A stretch of DNA of 64,000 nt, from positions 356,438,001-356,502,000 of the forward strand of contig OZ024740.1 in the NCBI GenBank assembly GCA_964016885.1. The letters run 5' to 3'. Numbering within the stretch: position 1 is the first letter of the stretch; each line of letters begins with the position of its first letter. Of the stretch, positions 20,462 through 64,000 are shown in pieces. A model generated the notes under the pieces. It did not search any database, had not been told where the DNA came from, and saw only the letters and a list, made by a program, of their open reading frames with translations. This DNA is from Eledone cirrhosa (taxonomy: Eukaryota). The position numbers and the translations under genes were made by a program.

Positions 20462-22435
20462 TTACCTGCTTTGCTTTCCTGTGTTTTCCATTTCAGCAGT
20501 AAATGGGACTTCTGAAATTTGTAGTCCATTACTGTATCTTTGTGCATCTTTTGTAATGGAATATGATCTTTTGATGCTTTCGTGTTTCAAAACGAGTTTG
20601 ATCATCCAATCATGTGATTCCCTTAGATATGAAGATAATCCAATTGTTGCAGTTTTCAACGCAATGTCTAACTGGATTAACCCACGTCCTCCTTCTTTCC
20701 TAGGGAGATATATTCTATCTGTATCTGCCTTAGGGTGATGCATTCTGTGCATGGTTAAGAATTTTCGAATTTTTGTATCGAGCCTACGGATCTCTGTGCT
20801 TGACCAGTTGATGACATTGTAACTGTAGGTTACTACTGGTATGGCAAGCGTGTTTATGGCATCGATCCTATTCCTTGCATTCAATTCCGTTCTTAAGATT
20901 GCTCTTACTCTGCGGTAACATTCCTTCCTTATCCTTTCCCTCATTGTCGAGTGCTTGATTCCGTCTCCTTCACAAACACCTAGATATTTGTAAGTTTTTT
21001 CTTGATCAAGTTCTCTTATCACGTTCCCCCGATCAAGATTAATGTCTGAACTCTTCAGCAGCTTTCCTCTGGTGAACGTTGCTTTGGCGCATTTGTCTAG
21101 TCCAAACTCCATTTTAATGTCATCACTGAACTGCTCCACAGTGGATAATAGCCCTTGCAATTGTTCATCATTTTTTGCAAATAGTTTCAGGTCATCCATG
21201 TAGAACAAGTGATTAATGGTTTTGTCATAGACTTTATATCCATGTTTTGTTTCATTGAGCATTTTACTTAATGGTATAAGTGCGATGCAGAATAAAAGCG
21301 GTGATAAAGAGTCACCCTGAAAAATTCCACAATTAATATTAACTTCTCCAGCTTCCAGTGATTTTGTTTCACTATTCAAAAGGAGTGTCGTTTTCCATGT
21401 CTTCATACTGAATGACAAAAACCTCCTGACAACGGAGGATATTTTGAAAATCTCTAAACATTTTTCAATCCAACTGTGTGGCAAACTATCGAATGCTTTT
21501 TTATAATCTATCCAAGCAATCGATAGATTTTTGTGTCTATTATGACAATCTTCCAGTATCATTTTGTTAACCAGAAGCTGATCCTTACAGCCATATGAGC
21601 CTCGTTTACACCCTTTCTGCTCAATGGGAAATAGGTCATTTGTTATCAGGTGGTCATATGTGTATTCAGTTAGGACTGATGTTAAAATTTTATACATTGT
21701 GGTCAAGCAGGTTATCGGTCTGTAATTTTGGGGATTGTTTGTCTCATCATTCTTCGGTAGCAGGAATGTAATGCCTTTAACTAGCCATGATGGTATCTTT
21801 TCTGGCTCCTTAACTATTTCATTGTAAAGTTGGGCTAACAGCTCATGAGACTCTGTGAAGGCATTTATCCAAAAGTTTTGTATTTTGTCTTTTCCTGGGG
21901 ATTTCCATTTGCTGGTTTTTCTTAGAGCCAAGCGCAACTGTTCAACTGTTATATTTTCCCATATTTGTTCCTCAAGGTGAGCTGTATCTTTCATTTGTCT
22001 GTCTATCCATGAGGCATGTATGTTATGAACTTTTTCTTCGGCCCAGATCTTTTCCCAGAATTCTTGCACTTCCTCCTTGGGTGGTATTGATTTAGCAGTT
22101 ATTGTTGACTTACCAATTTTTCTGTAGAAGTTTCTTTGGTTGTTTTTGAACATATTATTGTCCTTATAGAATCTAGATCGTTTTTCAAAGCGCCTTATAC
22201 GAGCAGCTTTGGCCGACACTTTTTGTTTGATTATTTCTATCAGCATGTCTATGTCACTTGTTGATTTTATACTGTACTTTTTTTTCAATTTTCTAAGTTT
22301 AGTTTGTTTAACATGTTTACCTACTTTATAGTTTGTTAAAATGTCTATATCAGATCGGAGAAGGTTTATTTGGCGATTGATGTTCTCTTGCCAAGTAGAT
22401 TTCTTGTGGGAGTTCCTTTGTTTTTTCATCTTCAC
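20462..22435 (-). CDS. Non-LTR reverse transcriptase (fragment of the disrupted single ORF)
   Basis: [58 protein letters not shown]. Confidence 0.92.
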   Translation of the reverse strand: MKMKKQRNSHKKSTWQENINRQINLLRSDIDILTNYKVGKHVKQTKLRKLKKKYSIKSTSDIDMLIEIIKQKVSAKAARIRRFEKRSRFYKDNNMFKNNQRNFYRKIGKSTITAKSIPPKEEVQEFWEKIWAEEKVHNIHASWIDRQMKDTAHLEEQIWENITVEQLRLALRKTSKWKSPGKDKIQNFWINAFTESHELLAQLYNEIVKEPEKIPSWLVKGITFLLPKNDETNNPQNYRPITCLTTMYKILTSVLTEYTYDHLITNDLFPIEQKGCKRGSYGCKDQLLVNKMILEDCHNRHKNLSIAWIDYKKAFDSLPHSWIEKCLEIFKISSVVRRFLSFSMKTWKTTLLLNSETKSLEAGEVNINCGIFQGDSLSPLLFCIALIPLSKMLNETKHGYKVYDKTINHLFYMDDLKLFAKNDEQLQGLLSTVEQFSDDIKMEFGLDKCAKATFTRGKLLKSSDINLDRGNVIRELDQEKTYKYLGVCEGDGIKHSTMRERIRKECYRRVRAILRTELNARNRIDAINTLAIPVVTYSYNVINWSSTEIRRLDTKIRKFLTMHRMHHPKADTDRIYLPRKEGGRGLIQLDIALKTATIGLSSYLRESHDWMIKLVLKHESIKRSYSITKDAQRYSNGLQISEVPFTAEMENTGKQSR

Positions 22436-24464
22436 TCCACATAAGTGAGTGGTGACTTTAGCCGATGCATAATAGAGATGATTTAAATCAGTAATGTTTA
22501 GTTTGTTTGTGATGATAATGTTTTTGAGAATTATATTAGTCTTGTGTTTTTATCTTTTGGTTCTGTTTGGAGTTCTGGATCTTAGGGAGGGTGTCTCATT
22601 GCCCCATGTCAGATTCTTTCATTTTCATCCATTCGATCATAATTTCATCCTTCAAGTTGGCAAGTTCATTCTCATTCATTTCTTTATCATTTACGATGTC
22701 ATTATTTTCATTTGGAGTTTCATCTTGAGCATGCACTCCCTCCACTTTTTCGATCCTTTCTTTAATTTGTTCTGTTGCCAGTGATTCCGCCCCAACCCTA
22801 GGATTCGAAGTGTTACAATTTACCTCGTTTTCACTGACACATGTTTCATTTTCCCTTCGCTGACTTTGTGCTAATAGCTTGATCTGATCAATTTCTATAT
22901 CAGTTAGTAACTTTTTTCTCATAATATTTCTTCGTATATTGGCTAGTTTGTTGCTGTCAATATAGCCTCTGTTTTCGGGATGTTTCTTTTTCCAGTTGAT
23001 ATATGTCTGTTCTGTATTCGATGTATTTGATGGGTAGTTCATGGCAGTGTAGAAAGCCTCAAGGACTTCTTTATTATCTTCCCTTGACCATTTTTCTCTC
23101 TTTTTCTTTGGATTTCTTGGTGGTGAGCATGGAGGGCCAACAGTAGGAGTATTCCGGTTATGGGAGGTCTCCAGCTCCGAAGTGATGGGGAGGTTTGAAC
23201 CATTAGCTAATTTTTCGACCCCAGTCTGGTTCCTCTCTGAGGGACGCGGCCCTTTTTTACCCGGGTGACGGCTGATAAGGTATGAGATTTTATCATTAGA
23301 TATTTACTTTATTTTGTCGCGTTTTATCCTTATCCTCCAAGGGGTAATCATTTCGTGTTACCACTTCTAGAACGAGTGTCAACCAAGACTAGAGGGGTCA
23401 TTCTCCCCTAGAGACACGGCTATTCCCCGCCGGCCGCCATCCCGGTATTTCTTGGTCACGGGGTTTTCTTTTTGTTGTTTTTTTAAAATTGTTATTATCA
23501 TGAGTGGTTCCTTAATGTGAGCATTGCGTGGCTTAAGAATGAAATTATTAATAATTGTCTCCACTCCAGGCACAAGGCCAGCAATCACCCAGTGCATTAC
23601 AATAATATAATATACTTTTTGCTGAAGTTGCCTGTTATTGTTGTTGGCTATGTCGGTGGTGGTGCTGGGGATTTTTATATTGTTGGTGAGGAAGGGGTGA
23701 GCCAGCAGTGCCATAGTTGTTGATGTTGACGTTTGGCCGGTGGCCAGGTCACTAAGTCAATCTATTTATATCTTTTGCTAGCTTCTCCCTTGTCTAGTGA
23801 TACCGCCACCTTCCCCTTTCTCTCTAAAGTTAACAGGGGAATAGTGGTGGGAATAGTGGCAATGAAGAAGTGGTGGCGGCGGTGATGGGATAGTGGTAGC
23901 AATGATGGATAGAGTGGTGGCGGCGGTGGCGTTGACGTTACTGAGTTTTGTGATATGTAGTATATATGAGTGTGTGTCGCGTATGTTTAATATATATTGT
24001 GTTGACATATTCCCGTAAAATTGGAATTAAACATTTTGTTAAAACTTGAGACAATAATAATAGTAATTATTATTATGATGCTGGGATTGGTGGTGGTAGT
24101 GGTGAAATTGCCGTTATCTGGCTGTTATATTTAGTGTGATGGGGTAGGTTGTGTATCAAGTTTCTGGTGTTGGTGAAATTGCTGTTATTTGGCTGTTCTA
24201 TATAGTGTAGACAGAGGGTGTTTTCTTCCATTTATAACCATTTTCTTTTTTGAATACAAAATATATAATACAAAATTGAATATTTGAGCGATATAACAAT
24301 ATAATATGGATCCGAAATTTTATGGGACTTGACTCGGTGGTTTATGCAACATTTGTACTAAGAATTGTTATTTCACAATTGATTTAAATATGTTAAAAAT
24401 CAAAAACTTACGGGAGCGATTTCATGACCTTCTACCACCTCATGCGTCTTCTTCCCTTATCTTA

Positions 24465-24506: not shown

Positions 24507-26566
24507 CCTTGAATCTCAGTCATTGATGTTGGTTAACTGGAAAGTCCGTTGGATTGAATATCAAGCCACTACCTGCAGCCTCAGATATTCAGGACGTATC
24601 GGAGGGTTCTTGCTGTTCCAAGCAAGCATGCCTTTTGAAGCGTTCCAAAAAGCGTGAAGGGGCCGATTTTCTTTAACCATCCCTGGAAACTTTTGGAGAT
24701 AGTCCCCAATGCGCCTATGACAATCGGGATCACTTTGACTTCATGGCAGTTCCAAATCCTTTTCACCTCCCACTTTAGGTCCTGGTATCGGTTAATTTTC
24801 TCCCTCTCCTTCTCTTGCACTCTCGTGTCGAACGGGCAGGCCACATCCACAATCAGACACGATCTTTTTACTTTGTCCACAACCACCAGGTCAGGTCTAT
24901 TGTGTTCCAGTTTTTTGTCCGTCTGTATCCTAAAATCCCACAGCACCTTCACCTGATTGTTCTCCATCACTGCCTCTGGCCTATGCTCATACCATTTCTC
25001 AGAATGTGGTAAATTGTTTACTTTGCACAGGTGCCAGTGGATCACCCTGCCCATCACATCGTGTCTCCAGCCCTTATAGTGGGTCTGGGCTAGGTGTTTA
25101 CACTCGGACACAATGTGAGCCACAGTCTCCTCTCTCTCTCAACAGATCCTGCACAGTGGGCTAGCCTCCTCCTTGTAAATATGGTGCTTCAACCACTTCG
25201 TTTTGAGGGCCTGCTCCTGCGCAGCCATTAGCATTCCTTCTGTAGCCTTTTTGAGGTCTCTTCTTCTCAACCAGTTCCATGTCTGTGGATCTCTAAATTC
25301 AGTTTTCTCAAAGAAGGTACTATGAAGGGATTTTCCCTTAAGGCTGCTCTTCCTCCTTGATGTTATTTCCTCCTTGGACATCCCCTGGCCTACTGTCCCC
25401 TCCTTCAGTACAGCTCTGAGCATTGGCTCCTTACTATAGGTCACGTATTTGTATAGGTTGTTTTTCTCCATCTGAACACAGTCCTCTATGCTGATAAGAC
25501 CTCTTCCACCCTCAGATCTCCTTAGGTAGAGTCTATCGACATCACTCCTCTTGTGGAACATGTTGTAGATAGTCAATAGCTTCCTAGTCTTCCTATCCAT
25601 TTCTTTTTGTTCAGCAACATTCCATCTCAGAATTCCCGCACTGTACCTAATAATAGACACAGCTCGGGAATTTACTGCGCTTATGGCATTTCTGCTGTTC
25701 AGATGTGACTTCAATACGCTCCTTACTCTCCGAATGTATTCAGTTCTTAACAATTCCTTCATTTTTTTGTTCTTTATGCCATCAGCCTCCAGAACGCCCA
25801 AATACTTGTATCCTTCCTCAGAGTCAATTTCCTTTATCATCTCACCTGTTGGTATCTGGATCCCGTTACTTCTGCTCAACCTACCCCTCCTCATCACAAT
25901 GACTCCACATTTACCAATACCAAACTGCATACATATATCACTGCTGAAAATACGGACAGTGTCAACAAGCACATCCAACTCCTTCTCACTTTTCCCGAAG
26001 AGCTTAAGATCGTCCATGAAGAGGAGGTGATTGATGGTAAGCCCTCCCTTTTCCAACCTGTATCCTGCTCTCACTTTTCGCAGTACACTGGTCAGGGGCA
26101 TCAGGGCAAGGACAAACAGCAGAGGGGACAGACTATCTCCCTGGAAGATACCTCTCTTGATCTTCACGCTTCCCAAGGATTCTCCAGTTGATGTTAACTC
26201 TGTTTCCCAGGACTTCATACTTTCGTCCAACAACTGTCTGATGTTATCTGCCACCTTGAAGATTTCCAGGCTTTTGGTGATCCAAGAATGAGGCACCATG
26301 TCAAATGCCTTTCTGTAGTCTATCCATCTCATGGCAAGACCAGTGTGTCTCCTCCTGCAATTCCTCATTACCATCTTATCAATAAGTAACTGGTCCTTTG
26401 TACCACGTGACTTCTTTCGGCATCCTTTCTGTTCGTCCGGTAACAAGTTGTTTGTGTGGAGGTGATGGTAGATTTCCTCACACACAATGCTCGTCAACAG
26501 TTTCCACATTACGGACAGACATGTGATAGGTCTATAGTTGGTAACATCATTACCCTTGATTCGGTC

Positions 26567-26639: not shown

Positions 26640-28676
26640 TCTTTGAGTCTCAGTCATTGCTGTTAGTTAACTGGAAAGTTTGTTGAAATGAATATCAAGC
26701 CACTACCTGCAGTCTCAGATATTCAGGACGTATCGGAGGGGTCTTGCTGTTCCCAGCAAGCATGCCCTTTGAAGCGTTCCAAAAAGCGTGTAGGGGCCAA
26801 TTTTCTTTAACCATCCCTGGAAACTTTTTGAGATAGTGCCTAGTGCGCCTATGACAATCGGGATCACTTTGACTTCATGACAGTTCCAAATCCTTTTTAC
26901 CTCCCACTTTAAGTCCTGGTATCGGTTAATTTTCTCCCTCTCCTTCTCTTTCACTCTCGTGTCGAATGGGCAAGCCACATCCACAATCAGGCACGAATTT
27001 TTTTCTTTGTCCACAACCACCAGGTCAGGTCTATATCCTAAAATCCCACAGCACCTTCACCTGATCGTATTTCTATCACCGACTCCGGCTTATGCTCATA
27101 CCACTTCTCAGAATGTGGTAAATTGTTTACTTTGCATAGGTGCCAGTGGATCACCCTGCCCATCACATCATGTCTCCAGCCCTTATAGTGAGTCTGGGTT
27201 AGGTGTTTACACTCGGATACAATGTGAGCCACAGTCTCCTCTCTCTCTCCACAGATCCTGCACAGTGGGCTAGACTCCTCCTTGTAAATATGGTGCTTCA
27301 ACCACTTCGTTTGAGGGCCTGCTCCTGCACAGCCATTAACATTCCTTCTGTAGCCTTTTTAAGGTCTCCTCTTTTCAACCAGTTCCATGTCTGTGGATAT
27401 CTAAATTCAGTTTTCTCAAAGAAGGTACTATGAAGGGATTTTTCCTGAAGGCTGCTCTTTCTCCTTGATGTTATTTCCTCCTTGCACATCCCTGGCCTTG
27501 TGTCCTCTCCTTCAGTACAGTTCTGAACATTGGCTCCTTACTATCAGTCACGTATTTGTGTAGGTTGTTTTTCTCCATCTGAACACAGTCCTCTATGCTG
27601 ATAATACCTCTTCCACCTTCAGATCTCCTTAAGTAGAGTCTATCGACATCACTCATCTTGTGGAACATGTTGTAAATAGTCAATAGCTTCCTAGTCTTCC
27701 TATCCATTTCTTTTTGTTCAGCAACATTCCATCTCAGAATTCCCGCACTGTACCTAATAATAGACACAGCTCGGGAATTTACTGCACTTATGGCATTCCT
27801 ACTGTTCAGATGTGACTTTAATACGCTCCTTACTCTCCGAATGTATCCAGTTCTTATCAATTCCTTCATTTTTTTTGTTCTTGATGTCATCAGCCTCCAG
27901 AACACCCAAATACTTATATCCTTCTTCAGAGTCAATTTCCTTTATCATCTCACCTGTTGGTACCTGGATTCCGTTACTTCTGCTCAACTTACCCCTCTTC
28001 ATCACAATGACTCCACATTTACCAATACCAAACTGCATACATATATCACTGCTGAAAATACGGACAGTGTCAACAAGCACATCCAACTCCTTCTCATTCT
28101 TCCCGAAGAGCTTAAGATCGCCCATGAAGAGGAGGTGATTGATGGTAAGCCCTCCCTTTTCCAACCTGTATCCTGCTCTCACTTTTCGCAGTACACTGGT
28201 CAGGGGCATCAGGGCAAGGACAAACAGCAGAGGGGACAGACTATCTCCCTGGAAGATACCTCTCTTGATCTTCACGCTTCCCAAGGATTCTCCAGTTGAT
28301 GTTAACTCTGTTTCCCAGGACTTTATACTTTCGCCCAACAACTGTCTGATGTTATCTGCCACCTTGAAGATTTCCAGGCTTTTGGTGATCCAAGAATGAG
28401 GCACCATGTCAAATGCCTTTTTGTAGTCTATCCATCTCATGGCAAGACCAGTGTGTCTCCTCTTGCAATTCCTCATTACCATCTTATCAATAAGTAACTG
28501 GTCCTTTGTACCACGTGACTTCTTTCGGCATCCTTTCTGTTCGTCCGGTAACAAGTTGTTTGTGTGGAGGTGATGGTAGATTTCCTCAGACATAATGCTT
28601 GTCAACAGTTTTCACATTACGGACAGACATGTGATATGTCTATAGTTGGTAACATCATTACCCTTGATTCGGTCTT

Positions 28677-41447: not shown

Positions 41448-42046
41448 CTTTTTCCGCATAGGTCTCCAGGCATAGCGAGGACATTGGAAACTTATTAAAA
41501 AAAATAATTCAGTGGAATGGAAATAGCTAAGCGTGGACTGGATTCCAAGCCATTGAGAAAATCACTGCCTCTACGTCTGTGGCAAATTCAAAAAGAATCA
41601 ATCACGTGACATCGAGGTCAATCAGTGGAAAGCGAGTGGTTATTAAGACAGCGGCCAGCTTACTACCATAGTAGCAGTCATGGCCAAATATTGCTCGACA
41701 AATGAATTGGAGATAATTATAAGGAATTTATATCTAGTAACATTTATAAAATGTTACTAGATATAAATTCCTTATAATTATCTCCAATTCATTTGTCGAG
41801 CAATATTTGGCCATGACTGCTACTATGGTAGTAAGCTGGCCGCTGTCTTAATAACCACTCGCTTTCCACTGATTGACCTCGATGTCACGTAATTGATTCT
41901 TTTTGAATTTGCCACAGACGTAGAGGCAGTGATTTTCTCAATGGCTTGGAATCCAGTCCACGCTTAGCTATTTCCATTCTACTGAATTATTTTTTTTAAT
42001 AAGTTTCCAATGTCCTCGCTATGCCTGGAGACCTATGCGGAAAAAG

Positions 42047-59222: not shown

Positions 59223-60972
59223 CAGGGGTTCTCAACCTGGTCCATGTGGACCACTAGTGGTCCACAGAAAATTTTCTGTGGACCACCTGAAAAATTTAAA
59301 TTCTTCCGTACACCCACACGTCACACAAACGAAACACGCCTAATCACACCTCGCACCTTCGAAATTATTGTATCATCAAAACCAAATCCATCCCGATTTA
59401 TATGGCAAGCCTAAGAAGTACTTCGAAGAATATCTTCGCATAAAAAAGCGTCATCTGCATCACTGAAAATGTTCCTATCCCATTCTAACAACAGTTCTGG
59501 TCTGCAAGCGTCCTATAACATTTCGCTCATGATAGCAAAACAGGGTCGCCCACATACCATTGGCGAAGATCTGATTAGGCCCTCAATACTTGAAGGATAT
59601 AAAGTTGCTAATGTGTCGAACGCTGCCTCAGTTTTAGCAACTATTCCACTTTCCAACAGCACGGTATCTTCCCGCATTTCTGAAATGGCTAAAGATGTCA
59701 AATCTACAGTTGTAGAAGAATTGCGACACTACAGATTTTCGTTGACGGTGGATGACAGCACTTTTGACAACCAATGTGTTGTGCTTGCTTTTGCTCGCTA
59801 TGTAAAAGGGACCACAGTTTGTGAAAACCTACTTTTTATGACAAGTGTACTGAACAGCACTGGAGAGATGATCTACAATGCAGTCATGGATTTTCTCACT
59901 AAAAATCACATTGATCCCCACAACATCATATCAATATGCAATGATGGATCAGCCTCTATGGTTGGAAAATCCCAGGGTTTTGTTGCAAGATGGAGAGAAT
60001 TTAATCACATCTTCACAAGATGTACTCCATCAAGAAAATTTAATTGCAAAAAAAATCGGAAGTTATACCTTTTCTGAAATCTTTAACACAATTGTTTCCG
60101 CAGTCGACAAGATCAAAAGATCTGGTCTTCGGGACAGGCTTTTCCAAGAAGCTTGTAAAGATGAAACGTTCAACCGTCTGTTGTATTCGACAGATATACG
60201 CTGGCTATCAATGGCAATCTGCCTTGGACGTTTTGTTGCACTCTTCGATAAAGTCATAGAATTTCTTCAACAGACTGATCCAATTATGACAGCATCATTT
60301 TCTGAGAAAAAACCCGCAATTTTGTACTTACATGAGATCTTTCAAAAACTAAATGATCTCAACCTTTCTTTGCAAAAGCAGAACATCAACGTTGTACGTG
60401 CCAAACACTTGATAAGGGCTTTCATGAATAAGCTCGTTCTATGGAAAATTCAAATTGAAGATCATAACTTTTCGCAGTTCGAGAGCTTAAAAACTGTTGT
60501 AATAGATAATGACTTGCACAAATCTATAATCGAGCATCTATCTTTCCTTCACGAAAACTTCAATAATTGTTTTGAAGATCTTTTGGCTTTAAATATCCCA
60601 ATTTTGGTGGATTCTCTTCACACAATGTCTATGAACGACATACTTGTTCAACCAGAATGTCTTCAGATGGAACTCTGTGAGGCGACGGTAGATGATAATC
60701 TGCGTAAATTTTCTGAACCTAACTGGGTCGAGGCATGGTTGAATCATTGTCAAGAATATCCAAAGCTGTTTGAACAAGTCGAGCCTTTCATAATAAATCT
60801 CCCTACATCTTACTTGGCTGAAAAGGGATTTTCCATTGTCCTCCACACATACACAAAGCAGCGGAGGCATTTGATCCTCGACAACAATGCCGATTTGAGA
60901 CTTCGCTTGAGCCACATAGAGCCGAGGATTTCTAAACTTGTGGATCAAAAACAAGCACAAGGGTCTCATTGA
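59223..60972 (+). mobile_element. hAT DNA transposon (Buster/Charlie-like) with a disrupted transposase
   Basis: 5' TIR CAGGGGTTCTCAACCT preceded by ATCTAGTG (NNNTANNN). Overlapping ORFs 59469-60077 and 59878-60972 contain PHTIGE.LI, PLSNSTVS.RI, DDST, DGSASM.G, LHQENL, RWLS, TSYLAEKGFS and QAQGSH. No 3' TIR seen. Confidence 0.9.
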
Positions 60973-62289: not shown

Positions 62290-62348
62290 TAGTCCAGAAT
62301 TAGCCGTCGAAACGGCTTGAGCTCAGCCGTCGGGGTCTTACTTGTTCC

Positions 62349-62411
<63 letters not shown>

Positions 62412-62540
62412 GAATGTAAATATAATGTATTTTGAATGCACTGTATGCTTAATTAAAAGCATTTTGAAGACCTTACGCTATTGTTTTAGAGTAGTGACAG
62501 CCTCACTTACTTTAAATTTTCAGCAAACAGGGGGAGATAA

Positions 62541-62585
62541 AGCTGACATAGCTCTGTTTCGTAGTATTTGGTACTTATCAAAGCT
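62541..62585 (-). ncRNA. Hammerhead with U3-A8 variant core (family F, slightly degenerate)
   Basis: AGCT-TTGATAA-GTAC-CAAATA-CTAC-GAAA-CAGAGCTATG-TC-AGCT. Confidence 0.6.
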
Positions 62586-62862
62586 AAGTACTCTACCTGT
62601 CTGCTGAAAATCATGAATGTTTGATTCTTATGGAATTCTAGTAATAATCAAGAACTGATTATATAGAGCGGTTGCCGGTCAAGCAGAAACTAAAAATTAA
62701 ATTGGTGCTCTGAAATAACGATATATATATATGAATGTAAATATAATGTATTTTGCAACACACTGTATGGTTAATTAAAAGCATTTTGAAGCCCTTACGC
62801 TATTGTTTTAGAGTAGTGACAGTCTCACTTACTTTAAATTTTCAGCAAACAGGGAGAAATAA

Positions 62863-62907
62863 AGCTGACAGATCTCTGTTTCGTACTATTTGGTACTTAT
62901 CAAAGCT
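62863..62907 (-). ncRNA. Hammerhead with U3-A8 variant core (family F)
   Basis: AGCT-TTGATAA-GTAC-CAAATA-GTAC-GAAA-CAG-AGAT-CTG-TC-AGCT; all three stems pair; GUC triplet. Confidence 0.75.
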
Positions 62908-62925
62908 AAGTACTCCACCTGTCTG

Positions 62926-62988
<63 letters not shown>

Positions 62989-63074
62989 GAAAGTTATATT
63001 TAAAATTGTTGGGTTACAACTAGTAAATATTTATAACTGATATAAAAGCACTCGACAAATATTTGGAGTATATT

Positions 63075-63419
63075 TACAATATTAAATAAATGGAAACTAT
63101 ATTTATAAAACCATATCTATTTCATTATATATATTTCGGGGATATCATATTAACAATATGCTATGTCTTCCTCAGACAAAATACAATATAAACAGTTTTA
63201 TAGATAAATAGATTTGACATACCATAATAACACCGACTTAACCTCTTCAAATGCAAGTCGGTGTTATTATGGTATGTCGAATCTATTTATCTATAAAACT
63301 GTTTATATTGTATTTTGTCTGAGGAAGGCATAGCATATTGTTAATATGATATCCCCGAAATATATATAATGAAATAGATATGGTTTTATAAATATAGTTT
63401 CCATTTATTTAATATTGTA
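63075..63419. repeat. Near-perfect palindrome (165-bp arms, 15-bp spacer) with a hammerhead in each arm
   Basis: 63075-63239 is the reverse complement of 63255-63419; ends in (TA)n. Confidence 0.95.
63311..63376 (+). ncRNA. Type I hammerhead ribozyme (family G); mirror copy at 63118-63183 on minus
   Basis: TATTTTGT-CTGAGGA-AGGCATAGCATATT-GTT-AATATGATATCCCC-GAAA-TATATA-TA-ATGAAATA. Confidence 0.8.
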
Positions 63420-64000
63420 TATATATATATATATATATAATAGTACAAATTTGGTATAACCCTTTAAGTACCGGTACATGTCACTGTTGTGACTAATTAT
63501 TTATAATTTCATTGAGCGTGGATTGTATTTACTTCCAGTGTAAGGTTAGAAAACCTTTACACTTTTGTATATTTTAATTATATATTGAATATTGATTGAT
63601 CGGTTTTATGTTGCAAACCAGCCCTTGCATATGTCTATGTATTTCTATATATATATATACATGTCTGAAAATGAATGGTGCAATTCTTTGTTGGCGCAAA
63701 TTCTAGTTGTTTGAATTCTGCCAACCAATCAGTGTGATCTTTCAACGACTGTCTGCTTCACTTTTGGAGTTCACGTGAAAGCACGATAGGTAATTGCTAA
63801 AATCGGAAAGCTTATCATCTCGCTAATCGTTTACTCCCAATAGATCGATATGTTATTGTCGAGCATCCTACTCATGAGTCGTCATTAGCCCAGATTCCAT
63901 AACATTTATCGATGTTACCTATTCGCCTGCATATGACAGTTCTAATAACTATTATAGGCGAATGATGGCGATGAAAAGAAATTCCGCCCGGGAAATAGAT

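Follow-up and report, generated by a model that had tools for sequence, protein, structure and literature searches.

Animal non-LTR retrozymes have been described as tandem non-coding units of 170–400 nt, each carrying one type I hammerhead, with thousands of dispersed copies and a self-paired monomer (Cervera and de la Pena 2020, PMC7229834; for this and the other papers cited, our comparison covers part of the published text). The family described here is alike in all these features and differs from them in its U3-A8 core and long self-complementary helix III; it is known here from the genome alone. In the part of PMC7229834 available to us, Penelope-like elements (PLEs) are only proposed as the mobiliser, whereas the present family shows a PLE insertion footprint. 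For frog retrozymes, considered as non-autonomous PLEs, the same partnership has been proposed in a 2026 preprint (bioRxiv 10.64898/2026.07.22.740005), the available part of which rests on co-occurrence and pLTR homology, whereas we analysed insertion ends and core variants; only one of nine frog dimers was reported there to cleave.

The hallmarks of PLEs, in the portion of Craig 2021 consulted (PMC8557442), are partial tandems, a 5'-truncated copy in inverted orientation and a one-ended tail of 30–40 bp. For the Poseidon element PAc of Anolis (Frangieh 2024, PMC11167929, likewise in part), the purified PLE protein is described as cutting both strands of AT-rich DNA, with two internal RNA start sites bounding the tail, and the hammerhead as dispensable for insertion in vitro, unprocessed RNA being the main substrate. 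The family resembles Neptune-clade PLEs and PAc in its partial tandems, 5' truncation, inverted 5'-truncated arm, one-ended tail, AT-rich or (TA)n target and two internal 3' end sites. Unlike PLEs, it lacks an ORF, shows no detectable likeness to the sampled pLTRs and has a tail of only ~28 nt. Furthermore, its two sites are paired, one per arm, whereas the PAc experiments in vitro, as far as the available text goes, gave no strand difference in start site.

The compensatory 3-8 swap itself is identical to that of natural U3-A8 hammerheads (Perreault 2011, PMC3088659) and of the minimal hammerheads of the Schistosoma Cercyon PLE (~1,300 matches, PMC4209133; both papers in part). The novelty given to the core in an earlier note on this DNA is therefore overstated, and non-LTR retrozymes and their proposed PLE link are also already in print (PMC7229834, bioRxiv 10.64898/2026.07.22.740005). 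However, the Schistosoma cases, as presented in the available text, are minimal, heterogeneous and mostly single motifs, whereas the present family has a full three-helix ribozyme in a tandem unit, has C3-G8 sisters close to it and belongs to a superfamily with two or more switches. The full-text literature searched, with most subscription papers and supplements outside it, yielded no description of a tandem retrozyme with U3-A8, of a family whose 3-8 pair had switched repeatedly or of retrozyme insertions in which a long end is paired with a short one.

Tandem units and hammerheads in the window

The window (the whole 64,000-nt stretch of Eledone cirrhosa DNA analysed) carries on its minus strand a pair of type I hammerheads, each with the core UUGAUAA, spaced by 322 nt and flanked on both sides by (TA)n. 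The array comprises 1.6 units: one full 322-nt retrozyme unit (62606..62927, minus strand), assigned to subfamily A1a, and a 207-nt partial unit (62400..62605, minus strand; unit positions 1–207), 94% identical to it, that ends at the short 3' end site defined below. The internal UA run of the partial unit merges with the TA target, and unique sequence ends at 62412. The (TA)n target tracts lie at 62349..62411 on the 3' side and at 62927..62985 on the 5' side of the element. In the full unit, the internal UA run (62721..62732, minus strand) corresponds to the short 3' end site of family insertions, a putative first priming site, and is followed by a tail of ~28 nt (62691..62720, minus strand), the end of which (unit 226–237) corresponds to the long 3' end site, the putative second priming site. 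The window copy is a one-armed insertion with a short end. The tandem units of about 322 nt with a U3-A8 hammerhead core reported in the earlier note were borne out, the hammerhead being of type I, and the minus-strand string it gave is present as written, with the core common to both units; the second of its two units proved to be only the 207-nt partial one.

Each unit opens with the hammerhead, in the order long stem I, UUGAUAA, 4-bp stem II, GAAA, helix III and GUC. Hammerhead 1 (62843..62927, minus strand) has an extended stem I with an internal loop, and its core bases and stems are all intact: stem I at 62907-62904, the core U3-U4-G5-A6-U7-A8-A9 at 62897..62903 (U3 at 62903, A8 at 62898), stem II at 62896-62883, GAAA at 62882-62879 and C17 at 62867, with the cut predicted between 62867 and 62866. 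Hammerhead 2 (62521..62607, minus strand) also has an intact core, with U3 to A9 at 62575..62581, starting 322 nt after the first core, and a cut predicted between 62545 and 62544; it carries a C.C mismatch in stem II (62564), and its fourth helix III pair is damaged, a change private to unit 2.

The structure is that of a type I hammerhead, with three helices around the core and the stem I ends open, the strict core bases U4, G5, A6, A9, G12, A13, A14 and A15.1-U16.1, a Watson-Crick 3-8 pair (U-A), and, in both window units, the NUH cut triplet GUC. C17 was found in 104 of 104 A1a copies, the search pattern having admitted only A, C or U at this position. The stem I internal loop and the A-rich 6-nt loop II are HH9-like, and a tertiary contact between them is a candidate. 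When searched with a type I descriptor that accepts either C-G or U-A at 3-8, the window gave exactly two matches, copies of one another and not independent events, as against one match in 100 dinucleotide-shuffled whole windows. The only Rfam model to match the 519-nt stretch was HH9 (RF02275; 19.9 bits, E 0.026), far below the gathering threshold of 52, and this match was absent from the 150 Rfam matches listed for the whole window; those matches were rejected as real RNAs and attributed to microsatellite and hairpin noise.

The minimum-energy fold predicted for hammerhead 1 is the hammerhead (z -3.3), and hammerhead 2 is predicted to favour an alternative fold. The monomer is predicted to be highly self-paired (-74.7 kcal/mol, z -5.0, 321 of 322 nt folded), none of 100 shuffles being as stable. 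In five of the six sense-strand hammerheads folded, the core was predicted to be trapped against helix III.

Family size, subfamilies and the 3-8 pair

Searches of the genome (3.0 Gb, 1,796 contigs) with the unit yielded 3,348 first-look candidates, 40 of which were scored, and a 19-mer from the 3' part of the unit had 4,129 exact matches (control, 0). The family thus has the features of non-LTR retrozymes: a short non-coding tandem unit, one type I hammerhead per unit, dispersal and high copy number. In 28 distinct top-scoring loci, all 71 hammerheads were U3-A8 (six rows from two overlapping loci having been dropped). A genome-wide pattern for the window's subfamily group, which fixed stem II and U7 and is hence blind to the C3-G8 subfamily A2, gave 911 matches, 891 of them U3-A8 and none C3-G8; the remainder comprised 7 non-U3 matches, all with A8, and 13 U3 matches with non-A8. 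Single changes of 1–2% at positions 3 and 8 would be expected from decay after insertion. The fixation of U3-A8 in genomic copies, proposed as a check in the earlier note, therefore holds for this group. A second sample used only the 3' motif for selection (63 loci, accounting for 95 of the first 100 matches, on contig C1); its 82 hammerheads comprised 65 U-A, 13 C-G, 2 C-A and 2 U-G, and subfamily A2, with the core CUGAGGA, surfaced in it. The units inside one insertion differ by ~5%, and most copies therefore seem to be old. The core pattern had no match in metagenome contigs, and for one run of unknown kind, in which strand and circles are invisible, the contigs list no 3/8 variant at the 10% level, a result given no weight here.

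A related lineage B, with a 315-nt unit, was spotted beside a GIY-YIG frame and is represented by 2,718 candidates; 240 of 308 aligned bases are identical to the window unit. The related C3-G8 subfamilies are 74–86% identical to the window's subfamily. A lineage B pattern matched 443 sites, 370 with C3; by hand count, the 73 others include 54 U3-A8 matches (subfamily B3), 8 U-G, 7 G-G, 3 A-G and 1 A-A. Among the first 100 lineage B rows, the 84 C3 matches had G8 in 77 cases, A8 in 2 and U8 in 5, and these last five are possibly a small subfamily. In one lineage B copy (L107:1954-2041), the hammerhead core is locally inverted between palindromic flanks.

A tree built on 229 columns from 64 of the 164 usable copies, after masking of stem II and positions 3, 7 and 8, separated A from B (support 100), A1 from A2 (99) and B3 from B1/B2 (85). 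Since a single clade of all U3-A8 subfamilies was rejected (AU p 0.0005), the 3-8 pair appears to have switched at least twice, barring very short recombination of the core. In a column count, 14 columns favoured A1+A2 versus B and none favoured A1+B3. Either direction of switching fits the tree, which has no outgroup. A single switch, as in earlier trees lacking A2, is superseded by the trees including it. No subfamily with mismatched 3/8 was seen among those found.

Pairing changes were also seen elsewhere in the ribozyme. Stem II occurs in five versions (GUAC/GUAC, GCAC/GUGC, GCAU/AUGC, AUAC/GUAU and ACGC/GCGU) that differ by two-sided changes. In an alignment of 50 copies, pairing holds in 93% of the cells (slid controls, 17–49%) and two-sided changes affect 9 of 17 pairs; five rows with mismatched 3/8 were excluded and the rows are related, so these figures are descriptive only. 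Pair 10.1-11.1 is a fixed U.U in B1, a known tolerated variant according to the available text of PMC3088659, and a fixed A.A in B3, so weak ribozymes may be tolerated. The nine strict core bases are invariant across subfamilies, which alone is not significant (~20% of columns differ; 0.8^9 = 0.13). Perfectly palindromic forms of helix III occur in 64 of 104 A1a, 11 of 18 A1c and 16 of 28 B3 copies, in four spellings; in A2, B1 and B2 helix III is near-palindromic, with no perfect copy. Its paired changes extend to positions unable to pair in a hairpin, and they fit the double-hammerhead fold described in the accessible part of PMC4209133; template switching while copying can be another route to perfect palindromes.

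These data modify several earlier readings. The double change shared by the two window units had been taken to argue against random decay. That two-unit argument is weak, because both units were likely copied from one template, and it is the family counts and the C3-G8 sisters that provide real covariation. In the window, stems I and II do have palindromic 4-mers, which the sister subfamilies do not conserve; their weight was overstated, and we rejected them as a family feature. A search restricted to CUGANGA would miss A1, as anticipated, and B3, and would find A2, B1 and B2. Censuses based on CUGANGA or on the Rfam threshold miss most copies of the family (65 of the 82 sampled cores are U-A), together with two autonomous PLE families of the same genome.

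Insertion anatomy

From the motif-picked sample, 69 blocks were scored, including a few small fragments and one pair (L209/L210) that looks like a single duplicated segment. Two arms in opposite orientation were found in 41 of the 69 insertions, with the 3' ends outward in all of them. The 110 arm ends fell at unit 196–207, in the internal UA run (53 ends), at unit 226–237 (50) or elsewhere (7), the exact position of the short end being blurred inside the TA run, and 85 of the 110 arms run into a TA tract. Among the 35 scorable two-armed insertions, 34 had one short end and one long end, ~28 nt further (p 2e-9 versus 50:50); six further two-armed insertions, outside the 35, had an unclassed end. 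Lineage B insertions, from loci picked by score or core pattern, likewise had a short and a long end in 26 of 30 cases, with nine unclassed. The tail, of ~25–30 nt, is present at one end only.

The median insertion is ~450 nt, most are under two units and there is no poly(A). The ribozyme cut site is spanned by 81 of the 110 arms, and no pile-up of 5' ends was found at the cut among the scored arms, the 5' ends being spread along the unit; a linear monomer was rejected as the template on this ground. Opposite arms of an insertion shared 0.49 rare variants per 100 nt, versus 0.03 between insertions (~16x), and tandem units shared few (0.24 per 100 nt). The partial tandems, 5' truncation, inverted 5'-truncated arm, one-ended tail and (TA)n target are those expected of a non-autonomous PLE.

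Two unusual arrays were also observed. The first (L098:1244-9168) extends over ~8 kb and contains over 20 family units, with inversions, in a higher-order pattern that combines three full units with one ribozyme-less unit. The second (L229) consists of four tandem 166-nt sub-units (unit 118–283) with no hammerhead.

Penelope-like elements of the same genome

A GIY-YIG search gave 10,597 candidates genome-wide, 150 of which were scored. One locus (L080:3772-9814, minus strand) contains a full-length Neptune-type PLE, with a 938-aa frame that includes an RT, a CX4CXXC linker and, at the C terminus, a GIY-YIG domain, flanked by direct-repeat pLTRs that are 97.8% identical, both of which carry a minimal U3-A8 hammerhead. 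In this predicted protein, the linker and the order of the domains point to the Neptune clade under the scheme of PMC8557442, in the available part of which Nematis has the linker too. A second autonomous family (L051, L061, L072 and L097) likewise has U3-A8, and a third has C3-G8.

Neptune-type elements end in TA, and four inverted pairs had a long and a short end 55–67 nt apart, giving tails of ~55–67 nt versus ~28 nt in the retrozyme; two inverted pairs of another family showed no long/short difference. The unit had no sequence likeness to 48 GIY-YIG loci (of the 10,597 candidates), except for retrozyme copies inserted nearby. A terminal CUAAU before the TA run, common to one Neptune family and the long end of the retrozyme, was considered too short to count. 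Two further short elements, seen at L059, L082, L096, L099, L072 and L076, have C3-G8 minimal hammerheads with a long stem II and end in TA tracts; at L099, the long and short ends are 59 nt apart.

Proposed mechanism of mobilisation

The dispersed non-coding tandem of ~322 nt is a non-LTR retrozyme, likely mobilised by PLEs, and we are confident that its predicted hammerhead is functional within such a PLE-mobilised element. The anatomy, counts and trees are observed, whereas cleavage, circles and the enzyme involved are inferred, and the full chain, in which cleavage and a circular template are followed by Neptune-type PLE copying into (TA)n, seems to us probable. A tandem copy would be transcribed by read-through, and the hammerhead would cut the multimer after GUC, acting as a monomer or as a double hammerhead, the latter possible because helix III is self-complementary, to release monomers. 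These may be circularised by a host ligase, by analogy with the literature on other animals. A Neptune-type RT/GIY-YIG protein would then cut both (TA)n strands, and both ends would prime on the RNA, one at the internal UA run and the other ~28 nt downstream, at sites 145–175 nt 3' of the ribozyme cut. The cDNAs would pass the ribozyme site, up to many units, and would be joined 5'-to-5', yielding partial tandems with an inverted arm. Selection would act on a few source copies, the genomic copies then decaying neutrally. Weighing against this chain are the dispensability of the hammerhead in PLE insertion in vitro, the ribozyme-less tandems (L229, L098), the trapped core predicted for typical copies, the failure of eight of the nine frog dimers to cleave, the age of most copies, the mismatches fixed in B1 and B3, and the autonomous elements sampled, which differ from the unit in sequence and tail length.

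The genome data fit a circular template and an uncut multimer alike. The same element and PLE enzyme could therefore use an uncut linear multimer or read-through RNA as the template, the hammerhead being active and selected for another step, for instance releasing the RNA from host transcripts or removing it once copied. The arms that cross the cut site are equally explained by uncut RNA, tandem units share only 0.24 rare variants per 100 nt, and hammerhead mutants left insertion in vitro unaffected, according to the text available for PMC11167929. Furthermore, ribozyme-less tandems (L229, L098) exist. However, the occurrence of an array of more than 20 units (L098) in a family with insertions mostly under two units is simple to explain with a circle, and coral, mussel and axolotl retrozymes are mainly circles in the part of PMC7229834 available. 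We therefore regard an uncut template as unlikely, while taking it seriously.

Spread at the DNA level or through a non-PLE enzyme, as a satellite, a MITE or a LINE-driven SINE, is improbable. A satellite or foldback element could look similar in tandem layout and inverted arms, one array reaches ~8 kb (L098), and no related PLE partner was found in the 48 loci; however, the 3' ends are fixed far from the ribozyme cut, the 5' ends are random and poly(A) is absent, and the long and short end per insertion, TA targets and median of ~450 nt match PLE insertions as described in the available text of PMC8557442. Least credible of all is a dead relic, in which drift produced U3-A8 in a source copy and the element spreads without ribozyme activity: the private damage in unit 2, the predicted alternative folds, the fixed mismatches at 10.1-11.1 in B1 and B3 and the non-significance of the core invariance alone would suit it, but it is at odds with the double switches at 3/8, at least two in number and accompanied by no observed subfamily with a mismatch, with five paired stem II versions and with the activity in vitro that the available text of PMC3088659 states for U3-A8.

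Returning to the preferred reading of cleavage, a circular template and Neptune-type PLE copying, the repetition of paired switches argues for selection on catalysis. We tentatively suggest, as an idea somewhat short of probable, that the repeated core-pair flips represent a two-mutation valley crossed under selection, such that self-cleavage would be needed for amplification in vivo, and that a dimeric PLE enzyme primes each of the two cut strands at a different fixed site on a single small circular RNA. If true, required self-cleavage in vivo would contrast with the dispensability of the hammerhead for PLE insertion in vitro, and two fixed priming sites, one per strand, would account for the tail being one-ended in all PLEs. 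The question of which enzyme moves animal retrozymes becomes testable on a 322-nt RNA, with the PLE footprint available in hundreds of scorable copies. The question of what PLE and retrozyme hammerheads are for becomes testable too, the natural U-A and C-G sisters constituting a ready-made allelic series.

Other features of the window

Three RVT_1 reverse transcriptase frames (20462-22549, 25139-26566 and 27799-28611, minus strand) are likely LINE fragments; as candidates for a linked partner of the retrozyme, these frames were rejected, since they lie more than 30 kb away, and no link was made. A 366-aa open frame (59872-60972, plus strand) has no Pfam match, and we take it to resemble the C-terminal part of a DNA transposase. 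Long near-perfect hairpins at 1122-1233 and 41707-41787 scored below threshold against several microRNA models and are probably repeat ends. A short GC-richer stretch (62290-62345), the end of another common repeat, adjoins the TA tract and also occurs beside L089 and L011. Finally, a MITE-like foldback element is present at 63069-63425, with 171-nt arms that are 98% complementary and 15 nt apart.
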